A stretch of DNA of 64,000 nucleotides from Octopus sinensis. Its lineage: Eukaryota. Made by a program: the position numbers and the translations under genes. The stretch covers positions 114,142,001-114,206,000 of the forward strand of contig NC_042997.1 in assembly GCF_006345805.1 (NCBI RefSeq), in the 5' to 3' direction. The notes under the pieces were generated by a model. It searched no databases and was not told where the DNA came from. It saw only the letters and a program-made list of their open reading frames with translations. Every line of letters begins with the position of its first letter. Position 1 is the first letter of the stretch. Positions 233 through 61,134 of the stretch are shown piece by piece.

Positions 233-434
233 TATCCCATTGTATGAGTATATAAAAAACTGCGTCTAACTGCCTTGTTAAGCCAGTGTGGCAGAGTAGA
301 TTCATCAAACCAGTAAGATCTCAAACTCAGATTCTCAGCCTCCTCATTAGACTGTGGTTTGTGGAGAGAACTTGTTGAGGTCTTCACCCTGCAGTGAACT
401 GAACATAGGCAATTCAATCCAATATATATATATA

Positions 435-940
435 CTAGCAGTATCGCCCGGCGTTGCTCGGGTTTGTAAGGGAAATAACTATATAAGCATTTTTAGAGAG
501 TTACTTCCCTTATAAATTCGGGCTTTCTTAGCCATTTTTGTTTTGGTGTCTTCAAGCCATGAAGTCGTTGTTCTAAAAGAACGCTGGTTTCCTTCACAAC
601 GCATTACGACGTTGATTTCTTTACACTCCCTTCCCCACAGCTTCACGAGGGAAGGAAGGGGGAGAAGCAAACAGGTGCAGGTGTGACCATGGACGCCAAC
701 TCCGCCGCCATCGACACACGATGCATTTTATGCATTAAAATGGAATAAAAAATGATGTTAAATTATTTTTAAAATCGTAGACTCATCGTAGACGCGCGCT
801 AATACCCAGACGGGCTCGATATGAATCACGACTATAAGATACCCGAATTTGGTTAAACTGCACCGCAAAATGTGGGAGGAGTTAGGAATCTAAATCGAAG
901 GGGACAGACACTCACACAACTAGAGTTTTATATATATAGA
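435..940 (-). mobile_element. Non-autonomous Helitron
   Basis: Minus strand starts TCTATATATA and ends CCCGAGCAACGCCGGG(hairpin)CGATACTGCTAG; inserted between A and T with no TSD; homologous copy at 14552-14858. Confidence 0.85.
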
Positions 941-1578
941 TATGCATATGTACATCGATTTTCCACATTTTCTGCTTGTACTGTGAACCTTATCCACTCC
1001 AAGTGATGAGATAATTATTCCAAGTAATCTAATATCATATGTTAGTATGGAAGGTTTGTGCAGTTTGAAATAGTAATTAATAAGTTTCATAAAAAAAAAA
1101 AAAAATGATAAGAGTAAGATTTTAATGTGTTTGAATGTTTCTGAGTTTAGAACAGACCAGTTCGCTATGCTAAAAATGTAAGAAAATAAACAAATTTTTT
1201 TTTTTATTGGAACTGGTCAAAATGAGTTACTGTTTTGGGTATTTATTTAGTTAAGCATGTTTTTGGTATTGAGACAAGATAAATGAGAAGTTGTGCTTGA
1301 AGTTGATGTTGTGTTAATGCAAGAGAGGTTAAAGAATGTCTACCTGCAATGGTTTCTAAGTTGTGTAAGCTGTGATGGCTTGTGGCTGTAAGTTATGCAT
1401 CCATTTGCATATTCATGTAACTTGTCAAAGTTGGTTTTGTGTAGAGAGAAAAGAGAGGTGTAACTTGTGATAGTTGTTGATAATACTACAAACGTCTTAT
1501 GGTTAATAAAGCTGTTAACTCTTGATGTATCATGGCTGAATTTACATAATTTCTCCACTGGCAATGTAATTAATAGGT

Positions 1579-2235
1579 GAAGGTGTATGGCAGGGGTGAG
1601 GAAACCCCCACTCATGGGTGCAATTGCGCCTGCGAGCACATTCTATTGTGCCCATGGGCCAATATACTTGTATGTACAAAATATAACTTATTCAATTATA
1701 AAATTTATACAATATGTATATGCCTATTTTGACATAGGTCACATTTCTACTGCAACTTAAGATGGCTAGACTCGAACAGAAAATTGTCCGGTAATTGCCA
1801 TTTGAATGGAAATTTTGCTTTCACTATAAAACATATATTACTAGGTTTGTACCACCCCCTTGTGACCCAACTACATTAGCATAAGTAATATAAATGTCCT
1901 AAATTCAGTGGCGGTGTTAATGAAGATGTTACGTGTTAATTGAATGTGTTAAACTTATCTTTATTAATGTATATCAAATTATACATAGATACATACAAGA
2001 TTTACACAGATATAAGAATTAGAACTTCTGATCCGCCCAAGGACCATTTTCTTTGGAAATTTTTACCTGCCGCACTAAAATGTTTCCCCACCCCTGATGT
2101 ATGGCCTAATGGTTAGGGTATTGGACTCACAACCACAGGGTCAGGATTTCAATTCCTGGAGTGGGTGATGTGTTGTGTTTTTCAGCAAAACACTTCATTT
2201 CACATTTTTCCAGTCTACTCAGCTGTAAATGACAG
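1579..2235 (+). mobile_element. SINE family G (tRNA head plus CORE-like domain), split by a hAT MITE
   Basis: GAAGGTGTATGG|CCTAATGGTTAGGGTATTGGACTC...TTTCAATTCC...CAGCAAAACACTTCATTTCAC; similar to 2712-3350 and 51925-52230. Confidence 0.7.
1591..2096. mobile_element. hAT-type MITE
   Basis: TIRs CAGGGGTGAGGAAAC / GTTTCCCCACCCCTG; 8-bp TSD GTGTATGG/ATGTATGG. Confidence 0.85.
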
Positions 2236-2711
2236 CCTTTTGTTCTGTTCAGTGGGTAGTAATTACCTTGGCCACTTTCTTGCCATGGAAATTTGGTAAC
2301 TGGCCCTATAAGTCCTTGGACTTCAGGCAGTGGTGTCCAAGGTTTGACAATGATGATGAATGTGATTAGTGATAGTATTAGTCTGTAGAGAAGCTGTATC
2401 CTGGCCAGTAAATTGTGCTTCAGTTATTGGACTGCATTGCTGTTGGTTGCTGCTATAAGGACCAGGTGAAACTGTTGTGGCAGGGCTCTGAGAAACAAAA
2501 ATGTTCTATTGAGGTGGGAGCTGTTTGATGTTGTTAAAAGTGCTGTCGGTTGCTGGTGATGAAAGCCAAATGAGAAGTGACTGACTGAACTTCTCGAAGA
2601 GTCTGTAGAGAAATGAAAGAGAAAATTATTTTGTGGTAGTGTATGTTCGGAACAAGCATTTGTTTTGTGTTAACTTCTTCTATAACTTTTGTTTCTGTAG
2701 TTGTTGTAGAT

Positions 2712-3350
2712 GAAGGTGCATGGCTTTGGTGATTAAGGTGTTGTGCTCACAACTGTAAGGTCATGGTTTTGATTTCTGGACTCGGCGGTGTACTGTATTC
2801 TCGAACAAAAGTTACAGGCATGGCTGTGTGGAAAGAAGCCTACTTTCCAGCCACATGGTTCAGGGTTCATTCCCACTGTGTGGCACTTTGGCCAGATGTC
2901 TTCTACCAAAGCCTTGTGAGTGGATTTTGTAGACAGAAACTGAAAGAAGCCCATTCTATTTGTGTGTGTGTGTTTGTCCTGCATCACCACTTGGCAACAA
3001 GTGTTGGTTTGTTTACATCCCTATAACCTAGTGGTTTAGTAAAAGAAATTGATAGAATAAATATCAGGCTTAAAAAATAAAAAGTACTGGGGTTGATTCG
3101 TTTGACTAAAATTTCTCCAAGGCAGTACCCTAGCATGGCCACAGTCTAATGATTGAAACAAGTAAAAGATAAAAAAGACTTTATTTTATGTTTCTCCAGC
3201 CCATTCATCTGTAAATGAGTCCCAGCAATAGATGGGGAGTTAACCCTTTGAATGACTGGCATCCCATCCAAAGTGTAATGTTGTAATTTTAGTCACTTCT
3301 ATGCCACAGAACCTGTGTCATACTCTGGTCTTATGAACCATAGGGCTCAT
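2712..3350 (+). mobile_element. SINE family G interrupted by SINE family B (about 2816-3176)
   Basis: G head at 2712-2812, then a full B copy, then the G body resumes near 3178. Confidence 0.7.
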
Positions 3351-4381
3351 AACAAATCTATGTAAATGGTAGTAAGAATGATCTAAATCTTTGGTGCCAG
3401 ATCATTCTTGGAAAAAAACTGTGTTCAAAAGATAACAGCTTCAATGGCAGGTCTTTCTTTTTCACAGGAATGACGATGGTGATTGTCACCATCATCACAT
3501 TAGCAAATGTGGTAATATAATCCTGCTGATTCTGTAGTCAATAAATAGCTAGGGTATTGATCAATTCTTAATTAAAACAGCTACAAATAAAATCAGTGGG
3601 TGTGAGACCACATCACTGGTCCACCATGAATATAGTTTTCTCTTTTATCACAAGTGAATCAGTACACAAGCACTTACCTTGTTTCTTGTGTAGAAAATTT
3701 TGATAAATTTGCATCGTGTTTTGTGTTCATTAATAGTTCTAGATAATTAGTATTCTAGTCAGCATACTAAAATATCTCTTTGACTAAAAGCAATTAGAAA
3801 TGACATCTGCACAAAAAATGTTATGTTAGTACCATCATATTTTGTGTAAAAGGAGAAAAAAAAATCTAATCTATTAATAATACTTATGTTGCGAGAAGAA
3901 AACTCTGTGACTAATATTATTTGAATCATATTTTGGCAAGTAGGGGTGACCACTCAAGATGTGTTTTGGTCTTATTAAACCTCCTCATCAAAGCATGGAT
4001 TCCACTGTACTTGCCAGATTATCAATCATAATGAATGGAGCAAAATTACTCAGACATCAATTATATTTTTTCCTAAGTTGACTGTTAAAATATCAGCTTG
4101 TTTGGTAATTAGTAATATTTTAATTGACAACCCTTAATCATTTATGCCCTTATTTGTAATCTTTTGGATGCTTGGGTTAGTTAATTTCTTGTTGGCTTGT
4201 ACTGACGGTTGTATATAAATATATGCTTATGTATTTCAATTATTTGGAGTCAGTCATTAAAGTAACTATAGCATTATTAATTGGTATTTGGAATATGATA
4301 TGTAAAACTGTTGAAACTGGGATTGATCTTTCACCTGTTGAGCTTTAATGTTAGCAATCAATGATGAAAGTTTGGTGGATA

Positions 4382-4585
4382 TTAATCCTTTTCTTACCAT
4401 ATTTCTGTTGAAATACTCTGGCTTTATCTCAGTTAATTTTGAAAATTATGTAGAATTTAGTAAGCTGACTTTGTCATTATTGTGTTGGATGTAAATTAAT
4501 ATGAAACATTTAGATCAGCTTAAAACAAGAAGCTTTTATTATAGAACCAGGGTTGGCACTGGGTGGGCTGTTATCAAAAAGGTTA
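4382..4585 (-). mobile_element. TTAA MITE type 2, degenerate
   Basis: Reverse-complement similarity to 36849-37057 and 52939-53151; decayed TTAA-CCCTTT ends. Confidence 0.6.
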
Positions 4586-6699: not shown

Positions 6700-6950
6700 G
6701 AAACTTTGTGGGTAAGGCTGGAAGAACTTGAGATAAGATATAAAGTAAACTACAAAAAGAAAACAAAACAAGAGTTTTTACCTTATATTTCTGCATTTTG
6801 AAGTTATGAAATGTGGACAAGCAACATGTCCACATGTTCTGAAGAAGGGGTCATAACCCTGAAATGTATAAAGTAAAACTCCAACTTTGTTTTGCTTTCT
6901 GTTTGTAGTTGTCTCTTCTTGACTTGTTTCGGCTTTATCCAATAAGTTTC
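6700..6950. repeat. Degenerate fold-back element with HHR-like core (Penelope-like)
   Basis: 6700-6791 is approximately the reverse complement of 6861-6950; CTGAAGA-A-GGGG-tcataa-CCCT-GAAA-TGTA at 6839-6868. Confidence 0.5.
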
Positions 6951-7931: not shown

Positions 7932-8508
7932 TATTAGAAAACCACTATTCTTAAATCTCACAATGAGCGATATTCAGCAACAGTACTTTGTAGTAAAGAT
8001 TGTTTGCCAACATAACATGGCAGTCCTGGTTTAGGACGAATGTTGCTGTAATTTAGCCCCAGAAGACGACATCTTCAGCTGGCTATACAACACGATCTGT
8101 GTCCTAAACCAGGACTGCTGTATTATGGTGGCAAACAATCTTTACTCCAAAGTACTGTTGCTGAATATCTCTCATTGTGAGATTTAAAGATAGTAATTTT
8201 CTAATTTATAAATCAGTGACTAGTTGTCACTTTGAAAACTATATATTTTGAACAGGAATTTGGCAGTGCCACCTCTAGCCAAACAATTATTCTGTGCTGA
8301 TGAAGGAAAATAACTCAGAAATTGCGATACACAGATATTGTTTTGAGCTGAGTGGGGATGCTAGATTCCCTTGTTCGAAAATATAAGGACAGATCATGTC
8401 GTACAGCCAGCTGGAGACGATGTCTCTTGGGGCTAAATTACAGCAACATTAATCCTAAACCAGGACTGCCATGTTATGTTGGCAAACAATCTTTACTACA
8501 GTATTGTT
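7932..8508. mobile_element. Compound palindromic element with minimal hammerhead (Penelope-like derivative)
   Basis: 7932-8039 inverted vs 8101-8205; 7976-8105 inverted vs 8386-8508; 8241-8385 is a long hairpin with an HHR fold at the apex. Confidence 0.7.
8291..8335 (+). ncRNA. Minimal type I hammerhead ribozyme motif (stem II decayed)
   Basis: TCTGTG-CTGATGA-AGGAAAATAACTCA-GAAA-TTGCGA-TA-CACAGA: 6-bp stem I, intact CUGAUGA and GAAA, quasi-palindromic stem III, AUA site. Confidence 0.7.
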
Positions 8509-13169: not shown

Positions 13170-13620
13170 AAGTGGCACATAAAAGGCACCATTCATGTGT
13201 GATCGTTACCAGCATCGCCTTACTGGCACTCGAGCCCTGTGCTAGTAGGGTGTTAAGAGCATCATCAGAGCGTGATCGTTGCCAGAGTGGCTATCTGGCC
13301 TCCGTGCCGGTGGCACGTAAAATACACCATTCGAGCGTGATTGTTACCAGCATCGCCTTACTGGCACCTGTGCCGGTGGCATGTGTAAAAGATTCAAGTG
13401 AGGTTGTTGCCAGTACCGCCTGACTGGCCCCGTGCCGGTGGCACGTAAAAGCATCCACTACACTCTCGGAGTGGTTGGCGTTAGGGAGGACATCCAGCTG
13501 TAGAAACTGCCAGATCAAGATTGAAGCCTGGTGCAGCCATCTGGCTCACCAGCCCTCAGTCAAATCGTCCAACCCAGGCTAGTTTGGAAAGCGGACGTTA
13601 AACGATGATGATGATGATGA
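13170..13620 (+). mobile_element. RTE LINE 3' tail (family C) with several internal repeat units
   Basis: Repeated GTGGCAC-TAAAA-CACCATTCGAGCGTGATCGTTACCAG units; (GAT)n tail. Confidence 0.9.
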
Positions 13621-17091: not shown

Positions 17092-17940
17092 TCATCATCA
17101 TCATTTAATGTCTAATTTCCATGCTGGCATAGGTTGGATGGTTTGACTGAGGCCTGGCAAACCAGATGGCTGCACCAGGCTCCAATCTGTTCTGGCAAGG
17201 TTTCTACAGCTGGGTGCCCTTCCTAATTCCAACCACTCTGAGAGTGTAGTGGGTACTTTGTATGTGCCACTGGCATTGATCATGTTTGGATGGTGCTTTT
17301 TACGTGCCACTGGCATAAGAGCCAGTCAAGGGGTACTGGCATCGGCCATGATTGGTTGATGCTTTTTATGTTCCACTGGCACAGGAGCCAGTCAGGGGCA
17401 CTGGCTGCAGCTACAATATTGGTTTTACTTGACTTAACAGGTCTTCTCAAGCATATCATATTACCTGACGCATCAGGGGTATTCTTAACAGGGCTGGACA
17501 TGTGTAGCTGTGATATCACTTTAGTTGCTGGGTCTTATCAATCACAGCATATCTCCAAAGGTCCCAGTCTTCCATTATTGCCTCTGTGAGGCCCAGTGTT
17601 TGAACTCAAGCACAGTATATTGCCCAATGATTGAAGGGTACTCTTCAATGGGCCTGTTATGTGACACTGGCTGAGGCCAATGCCACAGTCTCACTTGGCT
17701 TGCCGGGTCTTCTCAAGCACAACATATCTCCAAAGGTCTTGGTTGCTTGTCATTGCCTCTGTGAGGCTCAATGTTCGAAAGTCATGCTTCACCACCTCAT
17801 CCCAGGTCTTCCTAGGTCTAGCTCTTCCACAGGTTCCATCCACTGTTAGGGTGTGACACTTTTTCACACAGCTGTCCTTGTCCATACGCAACACATGACC
17901 TTACCAGCGCAGTCACATCTCATGCACACCACATCTGATG
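17092..17940 (-). mobile_element. RTE LINE 3' end: ORF C-terminus, 3' UTR and (GAT)n tail (parent of family C)
   Basis: LRW*GHVLRMDKDSCVKKCHTLTVDGTCGRARPRKTWDEVVKHD...QDLWRY is contiguous with the family C tail. Confidence 0.9.
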
Positions 17941-23427: not shown

Positions 23428-23995
23428 ATGATGACAAAAGACCGAGACCTTTGGAGATATGCTGTGATTGATAAGACCCGGTAAGTAAAGTGAGATCACA
23501 GCCATAACCCATACCAGTGTCGCATAACCAGCCCACTTTAAAAGTACCCTTGAATCACAGGGCGATAAACTGCACTTGAGAAGACCTATTGGGTCAGGTA
23601 AAATCAAAAGTAAATCAAGATTGAAATGGAAATTGTAGTTGTGGCCGATGCCAGTGTCACAAATGACTGGCTCCCTGTGCCGGTGGTATGTAAAAAGCAC
23701 CATCCAAATGTGATCAGTGCCAGTGCCCCCTGACTGGCTCCTGTACCTGTGGCACATAGAAAGCACCATCCAAACATGGTCGATGCCAGTTCCGCCTGAC
23801 TGGCTCCCATTGCCAGTGGCACATAAAAAGCACCCACTACACTCTCGGAGTGGTTGGTGTTAGGAAGGGCATCCAGCTGTAGAAACCTGCCAAATCAGAC
23901 TGGAACCTGGTGCAGCTTACCAGTTTTCAGTCAAACTGTCCAATCCATGCCAGCATGGAAAATGAACATTAAATAATGATGATGATGATGATGAT
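23428..23995 (+). mobile_element. RTE LINE 3' end (family C, long)
   Basis: Begins with DRDLWRYAVIDKTR* coding remnant, then UTR repeats and (GAT)n. Confidence 0.88.
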
Positions 23996-28443: not shown

Positions 28444-29372
28444 ATTACGAGTAAATTAAAACTAGTTTGTGCCGTAGTAATAAATGGTTTTAGTGAGGTG
28501 GTTTTAGGCAGGTTGGTATGAAAAGGGTTAAACTTGTATGAGGAGAGTGCTAAGTAAGTAGTATTTAAATGTAACATTGGATATTCTGCTTTGCAGAGTT
28601 TGTTAAATATCCAAGTTTTTTTTTCCTTTCCTTTCTTTTCTATTCTCTTCCTGCCTGTTTTGTAGGAAAAGGAAGTTTATGCATCAAATACTAGTTCAAC
28701 TGGAGATTTACCAAGTCTAAAATTAGCAAACATCTATGTTTTATTTATTCTTACTTTCAGGTTTGTTTGTGTCTTTTTCATTTTACCCTGTAAAAACTTT
28801 ATCCTCCAAAAGCAAGGAATCCAATTAAATTAGGTTGTCGTCTAAGTTGACTAATCTTCATATTGGGAGGGAGAAAAAATGCGTTATCTGTAATAAGGAT
28901 GTTATTTTTTTTTTCCTTGCTTCTTAACATAGAAATGGGTTTGTGTTTCTGTTGAAATATGTAGCATAATCAGAATGAAATAAATCTTACTGCTCTGCTG
29001 TGTTTATCTCTTAACTTTCCTCAAATTTACAGAAATATGAGCTCATCGCTTCTTCTTTCATCTAATACTACAAACCTCATCATTTACTCTAAATATTTTG
29101 TTAATGGTGGCAAGTTGTTTTGTTTATTTCTTTAAAGCATTTTAGACTCTTTTTTTTTTTCATATTTCTAAACCTTTTCCTCGCTAACTTGGGTGGGAAA
29201 ATAATTCATGTGATGCATACAAAACAGTGAGAATCCAAGCAATAATGTATCTATTCATTCTCGATACATTCTGGGAGATTCGAATGTGAATATGTTGATT
29301 GCTGTTAGAGGACACTTCATTCCTTTACATGACCTGTTTTTATAAGACACGTGATTCATTGATGTAAGGGAG

Positions 29373-29421
29373 CTTTGAGACACCATGCTGTTTTGACTTT
29401 GTTCAGTCTCCTCAGTCAAAG
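29373..29421 (-). ncRNA. Type I hammerhead ribozyme motif, G12 mutated
   Basis: Minus strand: CTTTGA-CTGAGGA-GACT-GAACAA-AGTC-aAAA-CAGCATGGTG-TC^TCAAAG. Confidence 0.75.
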
Positions 29422-29709
29422 TTACCCCAGATCAATGAATTTAACTAGATTACTAGTTCCTATTTATAGAAATCAGCAAACATATGATTTGTTGAGGTAT
29501 GCTGATGTCTGCCAAACAGATAATAATTCCTGGGTGCCTGCAGAGCATCAAGAATCCAAATGACAGCATATCTATTCATTCTCGATATGTTCTAGTAGAT
29601 TTGAATAGAATTATACTGATTGCTGTTGTATTTCATCACTGGAGAACACCACCTCACTTTAAATGATGAGTGTTCATGGCACACAGGATTCATTGACCTA
29701 AGGCAACTT

Positions 29710-29750
29710 TGAGACTCTAGTGTTTCGACCTTATTGTGTCTCTTCAGTCA
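29710..29750 (-). ncRNA. Type I hammerhead ribozyme motif, intact core, short stem I
   Basis: Minus strand: TGA-CTGAAGA-GAC-ACAATAAG-GTC-GAAA-CACTAGAG-TC^TCA. Confidence 0.8.
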
Positions 29751-30759
29751 CCCTGGATGAGTTAATCTAAAATCTTGATTTACAGAAATCAACAAACAAA
29801 TGATACATTCGTACAGGAAGTTAACTCATTTAATGTCAGAATAGGTTTTTACAGTAAAAAAAAAAAAAAGGGCTTAAATATAATGAAGTTAACTTTTATT
29901 TATGATGATCGGTATAATGTTTACTTTTTCTGTATAAATTTACTAAAACCATTAAATGGTTAACTACTTTTTGAAGTCTGACGTATCAAAGGTTCCGACA
30001 AGGACAAGCGGAAAATCAGAGCTTGAGACAAGAAGATGCTTTCAACCAATCAGAATTCTGTTTACACAATCAGTTTGATTATCAGCTTTGTTTTTGTTCA
30101 TAATTCTTATCAACAACTTTTCCTGTGATTGTGATTGAGAATACATACAGCAGTATGCTAAACATCGGACATAATCTCTTGTGGACAAACACTTTGAAAT
30201 TTAAGAGCTTTTAATGTGATACCTGCTAAAACAGAAATTGTTTGCATTTAATGAAAATTTAATAAAATCTAATCATAAGTAATTGAAATGATGCTAAATA
30301 CAACTAAATTGAAAACTTTTTTCCCCTGGCCATATCAGCAATTCTGAAAACTTTTGGGTGCGATTTCTACAGTAGAAGCTTTTTTTAACAAATTTTATCC
30401 TGAAAATCACCTGCGTAAATTACACAGGTGTGCAAATTACATGGTTTTTTTTTTACAGTATTTTAAATTGGTTAAAGTACTTGTTGACCTCACTACGTTA
30501 TGTTTGTCTACAGTTCACTGTCATCATCATCATAATTTAATGTCCACTTTTCCATGCTTGTATGGATCAGATGGAATTTGTTAGGGCAGACATTTTATGG
30601 CTGGATGCTCTTCCTGTTTCCAAATGAAGTAATATTTTCTTTTGACCAGACAATTCATGGAAGAAGGAAAACGAACAACTTCATTTGAATGACAATGTTG
30701 CTCATTTGCAACTATCACGTGTTGTCAAGACAATGGTACACACATATGCACCCCTCTCA

Positions 30760-44069: not shown

Positions 44070-44170
44070 TATGTACAAATGGCGGAGGTAAAGAATACAT
44101 ACACCTGGTTTTTTGCATAACAAAAACCCTAACCATGAGGTGTGCGTATTCTTTACCTTTGCCGTACATA
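44070..44170. mobile_element. ~100-bp fold-back MITE
   Basis: GGCGGAGGTAAAGAATACATACACCT / AGGTGTGCGTATTCTTTACCTTTGCC arms; AACCCTAACC in the spacer. Confidence 0.7.
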
Positions 44171-47238: not shown

Positions 47239-47614
47239 CAGTTCTATTCAGTTAAGAGATGAATTATTATTTACATTATTTACATTTGACGGATATTTGT
47301 CCTCATCCTGTTTGTTGTTAACACGTTTCGGCTGATATACCCTCCAGCCTTCATCAGGTGTCTTGGGGAAATTTTGAACCCGGGTTCTCATTCCTAAGGT
47401 ATTTTTCAATGTTATTATTATTATTCAGGTCACTGCCTGGAATTGAACTCAGAATCTTGGAGTTAGTAGCCCACGCTCTTAACCACTATGCATATGGCAT
47501 AGTGGTTCAAAATTTCCCCAAGACACCTGATGAAGGCTGGGGTGTATATCAGCCGAAACATGTTAACAACAAACAAGATGAGGAGAACTATCCATCAGAT
47601 GTAAATAATGTACA
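47239..47614. mobile_element. Head-to-head palindrome of a tRNA-headed SINE carrying a hammerhead-like fold
   Basis: 47272-47380 is the reverse complement of 47504-47612; minus-strand tRNA-like head at 47431-47491; CTGATGA-A-GGCTG..CAGCC-GAAAC in both arms; 13-bp flanking repeat ATTTCTTTCTATT. Confidence 0.8.
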
Positions 47615-48215: not shown

Positions 48216-48265
48216 CAGTGACCTCACGAGGAAGACTTTAACAAGTCTTCCTCATGAGGTCACTG
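48216..48265. repeat. Near-perfect 23-bp hairpin with 4-nt loop
   Basis: CAGTGACCTCACGAGGAAGACTT-TAAC-AAGTCTTCCTCATGAGGTCACTG; one mismatch. Confidence 0.95.
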
Positions 48266-58707: not shown

Positions 58708-59660
58708 ATATATGAAATAACTTATTTCTAACATTGCAATTTAAAGATAAAGCTATAAATAGTAGTGTATGGGAATGTTGGATAAAAACCCATTGAATGA
58801 TAAAAAAGTAGGGTTTTTTTTTAAACCCAATATCCAATATGCTATTATTTATAGCTTTAACTACTTTGAGTTGCACTATTAAAAATAAGCTACTTCCTTC
58901 CATCAAAATTCCATGTTAATTTTATATTTCATATACCAGCTTTAATAATGACAGATATTTTACTAAATTCTACATTATTTTCTGAAACAAAGGCAGCATA
59001 TTTCAACAGAGATGTGATGACTAAAGGGTGAAACTTGCTTAAATTCTTTGTATTGCATTGTATCTCTGTTCAGTTTTGATTTATGAATATGAATTATTGA
59101 GAGAGAGAGAGAGAGAGAGAGAGAGGGATGTGTGTGTGTGTGTGTATTTATAGCTAGCTCTGATTCACATGCAAGAATGTGTGTGTGTGATCAAAGTGGT
59201 AAAAAGTCTGGCGAATATAAGGAACAATAATTAGTATATATCAGTTACTAGAATACTGTTATTAGTAGCTTGTTTTAATTCTAGTATTGCTGTAGTTCTA
59301 TTTTGTCTGCTGAACTTTTAGACTCAGCCAAAGCTATTAACGATTTTCTCTTTTCGTTTTTTTTTGTTAATGTTTCTACCACTGTTCATGATTACCCATC
59401 AATTATTTACTTAGCCAACGGGCCTAATTACTTTCAGCTGGCAAATAGGTTTTTTATTCTTCAATAAATCCCATTCCTTGACCAAATAAACCGAAATGTA
59501 CATCATCATCACACTACCATCATCACGATCACCATGATGATAATGATGATGACCTCCTCCCCATCATCATGTCAACCACCCCCATCATCATCATCGTCGT
59601 CGTCATTACCACCATTATTGTCATCTTGATATCAACTAACACCACCACCACCATCATGAT

Positions 59661-59908
59661 CAGTGGTTCTCAACCATTTCTTGCCTGCGAACCCCCTTGA
59701 TTCCTATTTTACTCAACTGGACCCCCATAGCCATTTGAGGTTTAAAAGAAAATCCTATTTATATAATTAAATGTTATTAGGGATTGTATGGAAAATTGTT
59801 AAAATATTTTGTGCATTTTAGAAGTCTAACCAATTTATTGCACAAGAATTTTAACAAATTCTTATGTGTACCACTAAGGGTTGTGTGGACCCCAATTGAG
59901 AACCACTG
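59661..59908. mobile_element. hAT-type MITE in a (CAT/CAC)n tract
   Basis: CAGTGGTTCTCAA ... TTGAGAACCACTG; TSD ATCATGAT/GTCATGAT. Confidence 0.9.
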
Positions 59909-61134
59909 GTCATGATCATCATGTTGATGCCAACCACCACCACTACCACCATTGTTATCATCACCAGCTTATGTTTTTCTGCACTGATGTGGGTTGGATA
60001 GATTGTCAGTCTGCATCGTCTTGCACATTCACAGCAGCTGATAAAATTGGTTGAATTTGATGGTGTGCATTGTGCATGTCCTACAGAGTGTGGAATGGAT
60101 ATATTTTATCAAACGATTAGCATATCCTAGAGTGTATGTTTCAAGTGAGAAGAGCTAAACAACCCACTCCCCTATTATCCCCTGTCAGTTCTTATTTTGA
60201 GTTACTACCTGTTTAGACCTGTAGCTCAAGATGTAATTTTCAGGGGTTACATCGCGATCATGCTTTCTATTTTGTCAAGTTTTCCATGGTCGGATGCCCT
60301 TGCTTTCATCAACCACTTTATGCAGTGTGCTAGATGTAATTTGTTATGCTGCCAGCCCAGGAAAGACTGTCTTATCTTAAGATTTCTTGTGGTAAGAATG
60401 GATTCAAGTCAATGAGTAACGACCAACTACACTGCTGTCTGGATAATATCGTCTGTAGAAGGGATACCATAACGAATGCTTTGTATCAATGCTGGAGTTC
60501 TGCTGTGGTACAGGGAACCTCACATCAGAGACTCCTCCCCCATGCATTCCAGGAAGCCACCGTTTATGCCCTCTCGTGCACTGTTAACAATGTCCGACAA
60601 GGGAGATAACTCCCTATTTATAAAACCTTTACCGCATCTCAGAATATCATACATGTGAGGAGGAGGAAAGTTTCCTTTAGAAATATCTATGTAGCCATCT
60701 GTCTTTCTAGCCATGTATCTATCCATTCATCTATCCATCTCTCTTAATGTTGTTTCTCTGTACACACACACACATATATGTATTTAGATAACCTTTTAAA
60801 CTTTGATATATAATGGCAACGTTAATTCAAGGGTCCCTTTTGTGTGTGTGTGAATGTTGAAGCTTGTGGGAGCAAAAGAGAAATTACAGGAAGAAACATC
60901 CAACTCATGCCTGAACCCTGACATTAGTAACACACAAACAAACCCACTAAACTAATTCACATGCTGCCAAAACTAAATCACATGTCCAGTTTCCACTTCA
61001 TTCTACTAACTTTCAAACGCCCTTAAGCACCACAGCTAGCTCTTTTCCTTCTCCACGGAAGCCAATACTCCAAACAATATGGAGTAGTTACACCTGCAAT
61101 TTGAAACCAGTTTATCTGGAAATTTGGAAAGCTA

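Follow-up and report, generated by a model that had tools for sequence, protein, structure and literature searches.

A probable dead copy of a non-LTR retrozyme: a non-coding tandem repeat with two damaged type I hammerhead motifs 334 nt apart

Introduction

Metazoan non-LTR retrozymes are described by Cervera and de la Pena (2020; PMC7229834) as elements of 150-450 bp with low GC, and their examples include units of 350-390 bp in mussel, 330/350 bp in axolotl and 220-240 bp in coral. Further features of the class are a strongly self-paired monomer, expression as linear and circular monomer RNA, and the lack of a primer-binding site and a polypurine tract. For the coral, mussel and axolotl elements, the same account gives a pathway in which a multimeric transcript is cut, a host ligase closes the products and a reverse transcriptase, probably Penelope-like, copies them (PMC7229834). 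The canonical animal type of hammerhead has a helix I of 6 bp, a helix II of about 4 bp and a short helix III with a palindromic loop (PMC4209133), and hammerheads of this type with a short palindromic helix III are reported to work best as dimers (PMC4209133; PMC6155905). More recently, retrozymes have been tied to the pseudo-LTRs (pLTRs) of Penelope elements by Li, Clavereau and Pollet, who describe short monomer and dimer copies, most of them inactive, with an average unit of about 310-340 bp in several taxa (Li et al., 2026; bioRxiv 10.64898/2026.07.22.740005). There is no mollusc among the 35 species that they list (bioRxiv 10.64898/2026.07.22.740005).

Here, we analyse a 609-nt repeat on the minus strand of a 64,000-nt stretch of DNA (the window), and consider it likely that this is a member, now dead, of a family of non-LTR retrozymes, that is, of Penelope-dependent repeats. 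The class, the mechanism and decayed dimers have all been described already; the locus extends the known range of retrozymes by one animal lineage, probably the cephalopods. The literature surveyed, outside subscription papers, yielded no account of a retrozyme from a cephalopod. Moreover, the words hammerhead, ribozyme and retrozyme occur nowhere in the main text of the repeat annotation of Octopus vulgaris (PMC13282606), so that such repeats may sit there among the 'unknown' or Penelope-labelled families.

Results

The repeat and its hammerhead motifs

Self-BLAST and alignment delimit a non-coding head-to-tail repeat that runs from 29805 to 29197 on the minus strand, with the following parts, given in the direction of that strand:

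29197..29805, minus strand: whole element (self-BLAST, alignment; contig depth rises over 29157-29805 against the single-copy flank)
29713..29805, minus strand: partial unit of 93 nt at the upstream end, which terminates with the upstream hammerhead (alignment)
29748..29766, minus strand: 5' arm of the upstream stem I, damaged, with a 6-nt gap near 29751/29750 and 3 bp left beside the core
29713..29747, minus strand: upstream hammerhead core, predicted cut at 29713/29712 (descriptor; weak Rfam HH9 match at 29710-29750)
29379..29712, minus strand: cut-to-cut monomer, 334 nt, 37% GC, predicted to be 65% paired as a circle
29688..29712, minus strand: 5' end of the monomer, which is the stem I 3' arm; 25/25 pairing with 29440-29416
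29490..29518, minus strand: segment that occurs once and links the body to the next unit; 5' side of a predicted hairpin; spanned by paralogous contigs
29416..29440, minus strand: 5' arm of the downstream stem I, full length; with its own 3' arm it pairs over 6 bp and then meets a 3x3 internal loop (22/25)
29379..29415, minus strand: downstream hammerhead core with A at G12 (29394, CpG context), predicted cut at 29379/29378
29197..29378, minus strand: downstream partial unit, 182 nt, with its own stem I 3' arm at 29378-29354 and a 13-nt gap near 29307
29806..30300, no strand assigned: adjoining unrelated repeat of higher copy number, which ends at 29805, the upstream edge of the element, and continues past 30300 (depth and loose ends at 29805 in 3/4 runs)

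The earlier note had taken 29200..29805 for a tandem dimer. The repeat itself holds, as the two units agree in 203/274 aligned columns (74%), but it amounts to about 1.8 units, one whole monomer between the two partial ones, and not to two whole units. The unit starts are spaced 321 and 334 nt apart, a difference accounted for by the 13-nt gap, and in the alignment the units differ by 42 transitions, 13 of them of CpG type, and by 29 transversions. Six stop-free frames of 45-66 aa overlap the element and have no Pfam match. Tandem Repeats Finder (TRF), at settings other than those of Li et al. (2026), listed no array at the element, and neither BLAST nor a two-unit profile found further copies elsewhere in the window.

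Each unit carries a type I hammerhead motif at the homologous position. That two such motifs lie on the minus strand with cut sites 334 nt apart, at 29713/29712 and 29379/29378, had been proposed from the letters alone, and all of these coordinates are right. The upstream motif consists of CUGAAGA (29747-29741), a 3-bp stem II (GAC/GUC, 29740-29727) with an 8-nt loop, GAAA (29726-29723), a 2-bp stem III with a near-palindromic loop, and GUC with C17 at 29713. The downstream motif consists of CUGAGGA (29415-29409), a stem II of 3-4 bp (29408-29395), AAAA (29394-29391), a 3-bp stem III with a near-palindromic loop, and GUC with C17 at 29379. Neither has an extra base between A9 and G10.1, as judged by the descriptor and by comparison of geometry. 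Of the core positions checked, 12/12 are kept upstream and 11/12 downstream. Both lesions that had been suspected are present: G12 of the downstream core is an A at 29394, in a CpG context, and the 5' arm of the upstream stem I has lost 6 nt, which leaves 3 bp beside the core.

A relaxed hammerhead descriptor matches these two motifs and nothing else on either strand of the window. A single match of this kind would mean little, because 1.17 are expected per simulated window, and the weight lies with the pair: two matches on the same strand 150-500 nt apart occurred in 0/60 simulated windows. The search of Rfam that had been suggested as a check did not bear the motifs out. There were 0 matches at the gathering score in the window; up to E 10, nine matches fell within 28800-30200, among them one hammerhead, Hammerhead_HH9, at the upstream motif (13.9 bits, E 5.9), and no hammerhead match was found at the downstream motif. 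The plus strand of the element holds no hammerhead, and no other ribozyme family was matched up to E 10.

The earlier statement that stems are kept while loops differ is right for stems II and III, which are invariant, but the ribozyme stems show no compensatory changes, and the core region, at 26/35 identical positions, is no more alike than the entire repeat (203/274). Likewise, the stem I 3' arm (21/25 kept) is not significantly better preserved than the body (110/156; p = 0.23). Among 31 predicted pairs of the body, five show two-sided changes between the two sequences, and the clearest of these pairs is a CA/UG swap, which CpG decay alone can yield. A small hairpin before stem I was considered as a case of covariation with the paralogs and dropped, as its register differs.

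A long stem I helix and the predicted RNA fold

The junction formed by the two ends of the monomer had been described as a 9-bp stem I. This is correct as far as it goes but understated, as positions 29440-29416 and 29712-29688 pair at 25/25 positions on the minus strand (21 Watson-Crick and 4 G-U pairs) in an unbroken helix whose ends directly abut the core and the cut site. On the plus strand the four G-U positions are mismatches, and because the helix is unbroken on the minus strand alone, the latter is likely to be the RNA strand. Two of the G-U pairs recur when the same 5' arm is paired with the downstream unit's own 3' arm, where 22/25 positions pair and the 3x3 internal loop lies 6 bp from the core. 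In sampled folds of the linear precursor, the inner pairs of the 25-bp helix reach probabilities of 0.99-1.0 and its ends 0.63 and 0.37, and a circle is therefore not required for the helix to form.

The monomer folds with z-scores of -6.5 (linear) and -5.4 (circular) on the minus strand against -2.9 and -2.8 on the plus strand, values to be read in a window rich in hairpins, where 4/50 random 334-nt stretches reach -6.5 or lower. The hammerhead folds themselves come at a cost, and neither is predicted to be populated. Enforcing them raises the energy above the minimum by 16.5 kcal/mol for the upstream motif, 10.1 kcal/mol for the downstream motif and 23.3 kcal/mol for both, while for the upstream motif in a nascent transcript, before the competing arm is made, the figure is 13.1 kcal/mol; the pair probabilities of the upstream stems are at most 0.03. 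Self-pairing of the stem III segment is computed at -11.6 kcal/mol downstream and -3.6 kcal/mol upstream.

Predicted inactivity of the locus

G12 acts as the general base of the hammerhead, and the change G12A slows the full-length ribozyme about 10^5-10^6-fold (PMC2553840). The earlier suspicion of an inactive locus can be sharpened, since our model of the two folding registers predicts at most one of the two cuts in either. In the monomeric register, the site at 29713 would rely on the core with 3 bp of stem I and the site at 29379 on the G12A core.

Assignments in the double-hammerhead register follow from the general properties of that fold. The 25-bp helix is predicted to set the G12A core on the site at 29713, and the intact core would need the broken arm to act on 29379. 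Because two cuts are needed and at most one slow cut is available, the locus is predicted to release no 334-nt monomer, and any circle made from it would be expected to carry the G12A core.

Related copies and a possible sibling locus

Contigs from 4 of the 24 listed sequencing runs were aligned to 28800-30300 at 80% likeness. In DNA run X1 the summed contig depth is 36.4 over the flank and 326-4577 in the bins of 29157-29768; in DNA run X11, from a second organism, the corresponding values are 18.3 and 111-1796, although summed contig depth is not a copy number. The expectation that other genomic copies exist is borne out by 50-65 differing contigs at the best sites listed in each of the two DNA runs. 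Among the 40 of 172 variants listed, X1 and X11 have 62 and 65 differing contigs at 29263, 52 and 50 at 29496, and 13 and 13 at 29405 in the downstream core. Overall, tens to about a hundred related copies are seen. At these sites each contig has about 1-2 times the single-copy depth (49-83 in X1), and this near-single-copy depth and the like counts in two organisms suggest that the family is old and dispersed. Among contigs within 80% likeness, none had the high depth of a collapsed young array. These copies and the canonical animal type I geometry of the motifs both support the reading of the locus as a fossil retrozyme copy, as first suggested.

Paralogous contigs also bear on the form of the unit. 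Two of them (X11 records 13 and 14) join the body to the start of the next unit and a third (X11 record 10) is continuous from the stem I arm across the core and on into the body; the unit thus closes on itself in other copies too. Joints that go back by 307-322 were considered as tandem arrays elsewhere and rejected, because the same joint arises when a paralog fits first one unit and then its neighbour. A pattern of the body had 0 matches in genome and viral contigs, and a hammerhead pattern had 0 matches in viral contigs. Three stretches in metagenome contigs (L001:1501-1544, L002:1501-1548 and L003:1501-1544) hold single well-formed hammerhead-like motifs, which we set aside as unrelated: they lie in no tandem repeat, their likeness is confined to the core and a profile search gave 0 matches.

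The insertion has an ortholog in the second organism, where X11 record 9 extends across the downstream edge by 51 nt, with further contigs in records 12 and 15. The part of the ortholog that holds the downstream ribozyme differs at 4/174 positions and the flank at 11/449 (p = 1.0, at low power). Beside the ortholog, X11 record 11, at a depth of 25.1, has 26 differences over 29318-29749, and X1 has two contigs with identical ends at 29486-29655, with 0 and 9 differences and depths of 48.9 and 40.8. These contigs suggest one probable further locus in the two organisms, about 94-95% alike over 29307-29749, with an allele as the alternative. This sibling candidate includes both cores, and its likeness ends just at the damage in the upstream stem I arm.

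Should the sibling prove to be a second locus, the age of the insertion would not by itself account for the 26% by which the units differ, and the unlike units would have been copied as a block, or duplicated or converted at the DNA level. The divergence between the units (Jukes-Cantor, JC) is 0.32, or 0.16 per unit; given the sibling locus, the latter would set no more than an upper bound on age, with the split from the second organism as the lower bound. An expansion of Penelope elements in Octopus has been reported at a divergence of 0.2 (PMC13282606), near the 0.16 per unit seen here.

It is at this point that the leading rival has to be weighed, namely that a hammerhead-bearing repeat, at first a solitary copy or part of a Penelope end, was amplified and put in tandem by local duplication, unequal crossover or conversion of DNA, and that circular RNA played no part. 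Local tandem amplification of pLTR-derived units is discussed by Li et al., in whose test 1/9 predicted dimers were cleaved (bioRxiv 10.64898/2026.07.22.740005); a DNA copy would also explain the roughly 95% alike sibling that spans both cores (X1 records 2 and 3; X11 record 11), and none of the 15 joints listed is that of a circle. However, dozens of dispersed and separately diverged copies with unique flanks fit retroposition better, and the terminal helix is compatible with RNA, through its G-U pairs, on one strand only. We therefore regard tandem formation at the DNA level as improbable, and a retrozyme copy remains the preferred reading.

Surroundings of the element and RNA data

The repeat that adjoins the element is cut off at 29805, and its continuation is absent on the element's other side; the upstream edge may thus be a deletion or an insertion junction. 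No target-site duplication was found at the ends of the element, of which the upstream one lies against this truncated repeat and may differ from the original. The adjoining repeat extends to about 30440, with a summed depth of up to 93,000 in X1. Where its copies break off, the loose ends are similar to 30421-30440 in reverse complement, a hint of terminal inverted repeats.

Other structures in the window deserve mention in their own right. Nested long inverted repeats (helices of 49, 24 and 22 bp) make up a palindromic, MITE-like element at 7969-8501, and more hairpins or inverted repeats of 20-23 bp lie at 44079-44165, 48216-48265, 59653-59916 and 58714-58896. Related tandem units of 63-66 nt occur within a frequent SINE-like repeat at 13295-13450, 17268-17405 and 23664-23834, and the SINE-like repeats suggest that the host is probably an octopus. 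A weak match to a minimal-hammerhead descriptor at 6839-6870 (plus strand), with a 2-bp stem I, is probably due to chance, with 0.14 expected per simulated window. Finally, the inverted 109-bp arms at 47272-47380 and 47504-47612 are 92.7% alike, and each holds a Penelope-type minimal hammerhead-like core, with CUGAUGA at 47527 (plus strand) and 47357 (minus strand), an extra base after A9, a stem II of 5-6 bp and GAAAC. Stem I and the cleavage triplet cannot be placed jointly in this pair, and both cores look defective; the pair is similar to those described on opposite strands at Penelope ends and has no similarity to the element at 29197-29805.

The presence of this pair in the window is one reason to ask whether the element itself is a pseudo-LTR remnant of an autonomous Penelope-like element (PLE), in partial tandem and with its ORF lost. 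PLEs bear type I hammerheads in their tandem ends (PMC4209133; PMC11167929), and in Xenopus retrozymes are placed as sisters to pLTRs (bioRxiv 10.64898/2026.07.22.740005). Against this, the motifs are spaced 334 nt apart and not about 3 kb, they are free of the marks of the minimal type (an extra base after A9 and a helix II of 7-8 bp), the element has no similarity to the 47.3-47.6 kb pair, and the paralogs link the body back to the hammerhead arm and not into an ORF. Moreover, the Pfam-scanned frames include no reverse transcriptase or endonuclease: nothing scored above the cut-off, reverse transcriptase and GIY-YIG included, in 133/133 frames of at least 45 aa between 21.8 and 37.0 kb (three sub-threshold matches), nor in 121 further frames of at least 70 aa (three sub-threshold matches in two simple-sequence frames), low-complexity frames being excluded from both sets. 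A Penelope remnant is hence a doubtful explanation, and an old retrozyme copy accounts better for the locus.

None of the listed runs is recorded as RNA, and two of the four aligned are guessed to be so. In run X15, a 227-nt contig at a depth of 3.6 is identical to 29522-29748 and bridges the upstream cut site with 36 nt on its short side, and it may be DNA; the bins of 29310-29411 have no cover in this run. In run X18, likewise from contigs, the ratio of the family's depth to that of the neighbouring repeat resembles the ratio in the DNA run X11. No end-to-start joint of a circle is present among the 15 joints listed, which come from contigs and include these two runs.

The complete upstream core and the X15 contig could be taken to suggest a working ribozyme retained by the host for processing an intron or a non-coding transcript. 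Yet the contig bridges the very site that such a ribozyme would cut, at low depth and possibly as DNA, the ortholog is no better kept than its flank, and the fold is disfavoured both by its enforced cost and by its low pair probabilities, all of which makes retention by the host very unlikely. Chance motif matches in an old duplication rich in inverted repeats are scarcely credible. In their favour, the relaxed descriptor finds about one match per simulated window, 16 non-simple helices of at least 20 bp are listed for the two strands of the window, and Rfam lends no support at the gathering score. Against them, two in-register matches that keep 23/24 core positions lie flush with a 25-bp helix here, and 0/60 simulations gave such a pair.

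Discussion

The most probable history of the locus thus follows the known retrozyme pathway. The minus strand would have been transcribed as a multimeric RNA, and transcripts of intact members would have been cut once per unit into monomers of about 334 nt, probably in the double-hammerhead register given the short, near-palindromic stems III. A host ligase would then have closed the monomers into circles, and a Penelope-like reverse transcriptase would have copied the circles back into DNA as tandem copies. A bolder version holds that there is an undescribed, probably octopus family with intact, expressed members, in which the long unbroken stem I holds the two ends of each monomer together and so restricts cutting to the double-hammerhead register, and in which two unlike neighbouring units were mobilised as a block, as the roughly 95% alike sibling across both cores would suggest; this we put forward as a speculation, unlikely as things stand.

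As the copy described here is predicted to be dead, its value lies in its use as a probe for intact relatives. If there are such relatives and they produce circles, the proposed partnership between Penelope elements and retrozymes could be tested in an invertebrate.

Comparison with known systems

Two kinds of described system can be set apart at once. An autonomous Penelope-like element would have an ORF with reverse transcriptase and GIY-YIG domains between the motifs, which is absent here, and unlike viroid-like RNAs with ribozymes in both polarities, the element has no ribozyme on the opposite strand. The hammerheads of Rfam clan CL00010 (Hammerhead_HH9, RF02275, and others) share its core consensus, and Hammerhead_HH9 aligns weakly with the upstream motif, at 13.9 bits where the gathering score is 52.

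The minimal hammerheads of PLE pLTRs, as described, are alike in their type I topology, palindromic stem III region and tandem arrangement (PMC4209133; PMC11167929). The motifs of the element differ in lacking an extra base after A9, in a helix II of 3-4 bp and in having a helix III, of which the minimal type has little or none, so that its geometry fits the canonical animal type of PMC4209133 and not the minimal type of Penelope. The Penelope-derived retrozymes of Li et al. (2026) come closer, with short dimer-type copies, a unit near the 334 nt found here and inactivity, which for our element is a prediction. What Li et al. call an 'active' retrozyme has two consecutive complete hammerheads in a repeat detected by TRF, whereas here the downstream motif carries G12A and the upstream one a gap in stem I.

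The metazoan non-LTR retrozymes are the nearest likeness, judged by their described features. Both motifs here are damaged and the units are 74% alike, the ends of the monomer pair in an unbroken 25-bp helix, and the related copies seen number tens to about a hundred and not thousands; in these respects the element stands apart. A target-site duplication of more than 4 bp, of which the element shows none, is an optional feature of retrozymes (PMC7229834). What it shares with them are non-coding units, each a few hundred bp long and arranged in tandem, low GC and a multi-copy family (PMC7229834), and each unit has a single type I hammerhead, on the same strand in both, with a short near-palindromic helix III. 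Its monomer is predicted to be self-paired, but to a degree that 4/50 random stretches of the window also reach; and its size of 334 nt and GC of 37% fall within the published range of the class (PMC7229834).
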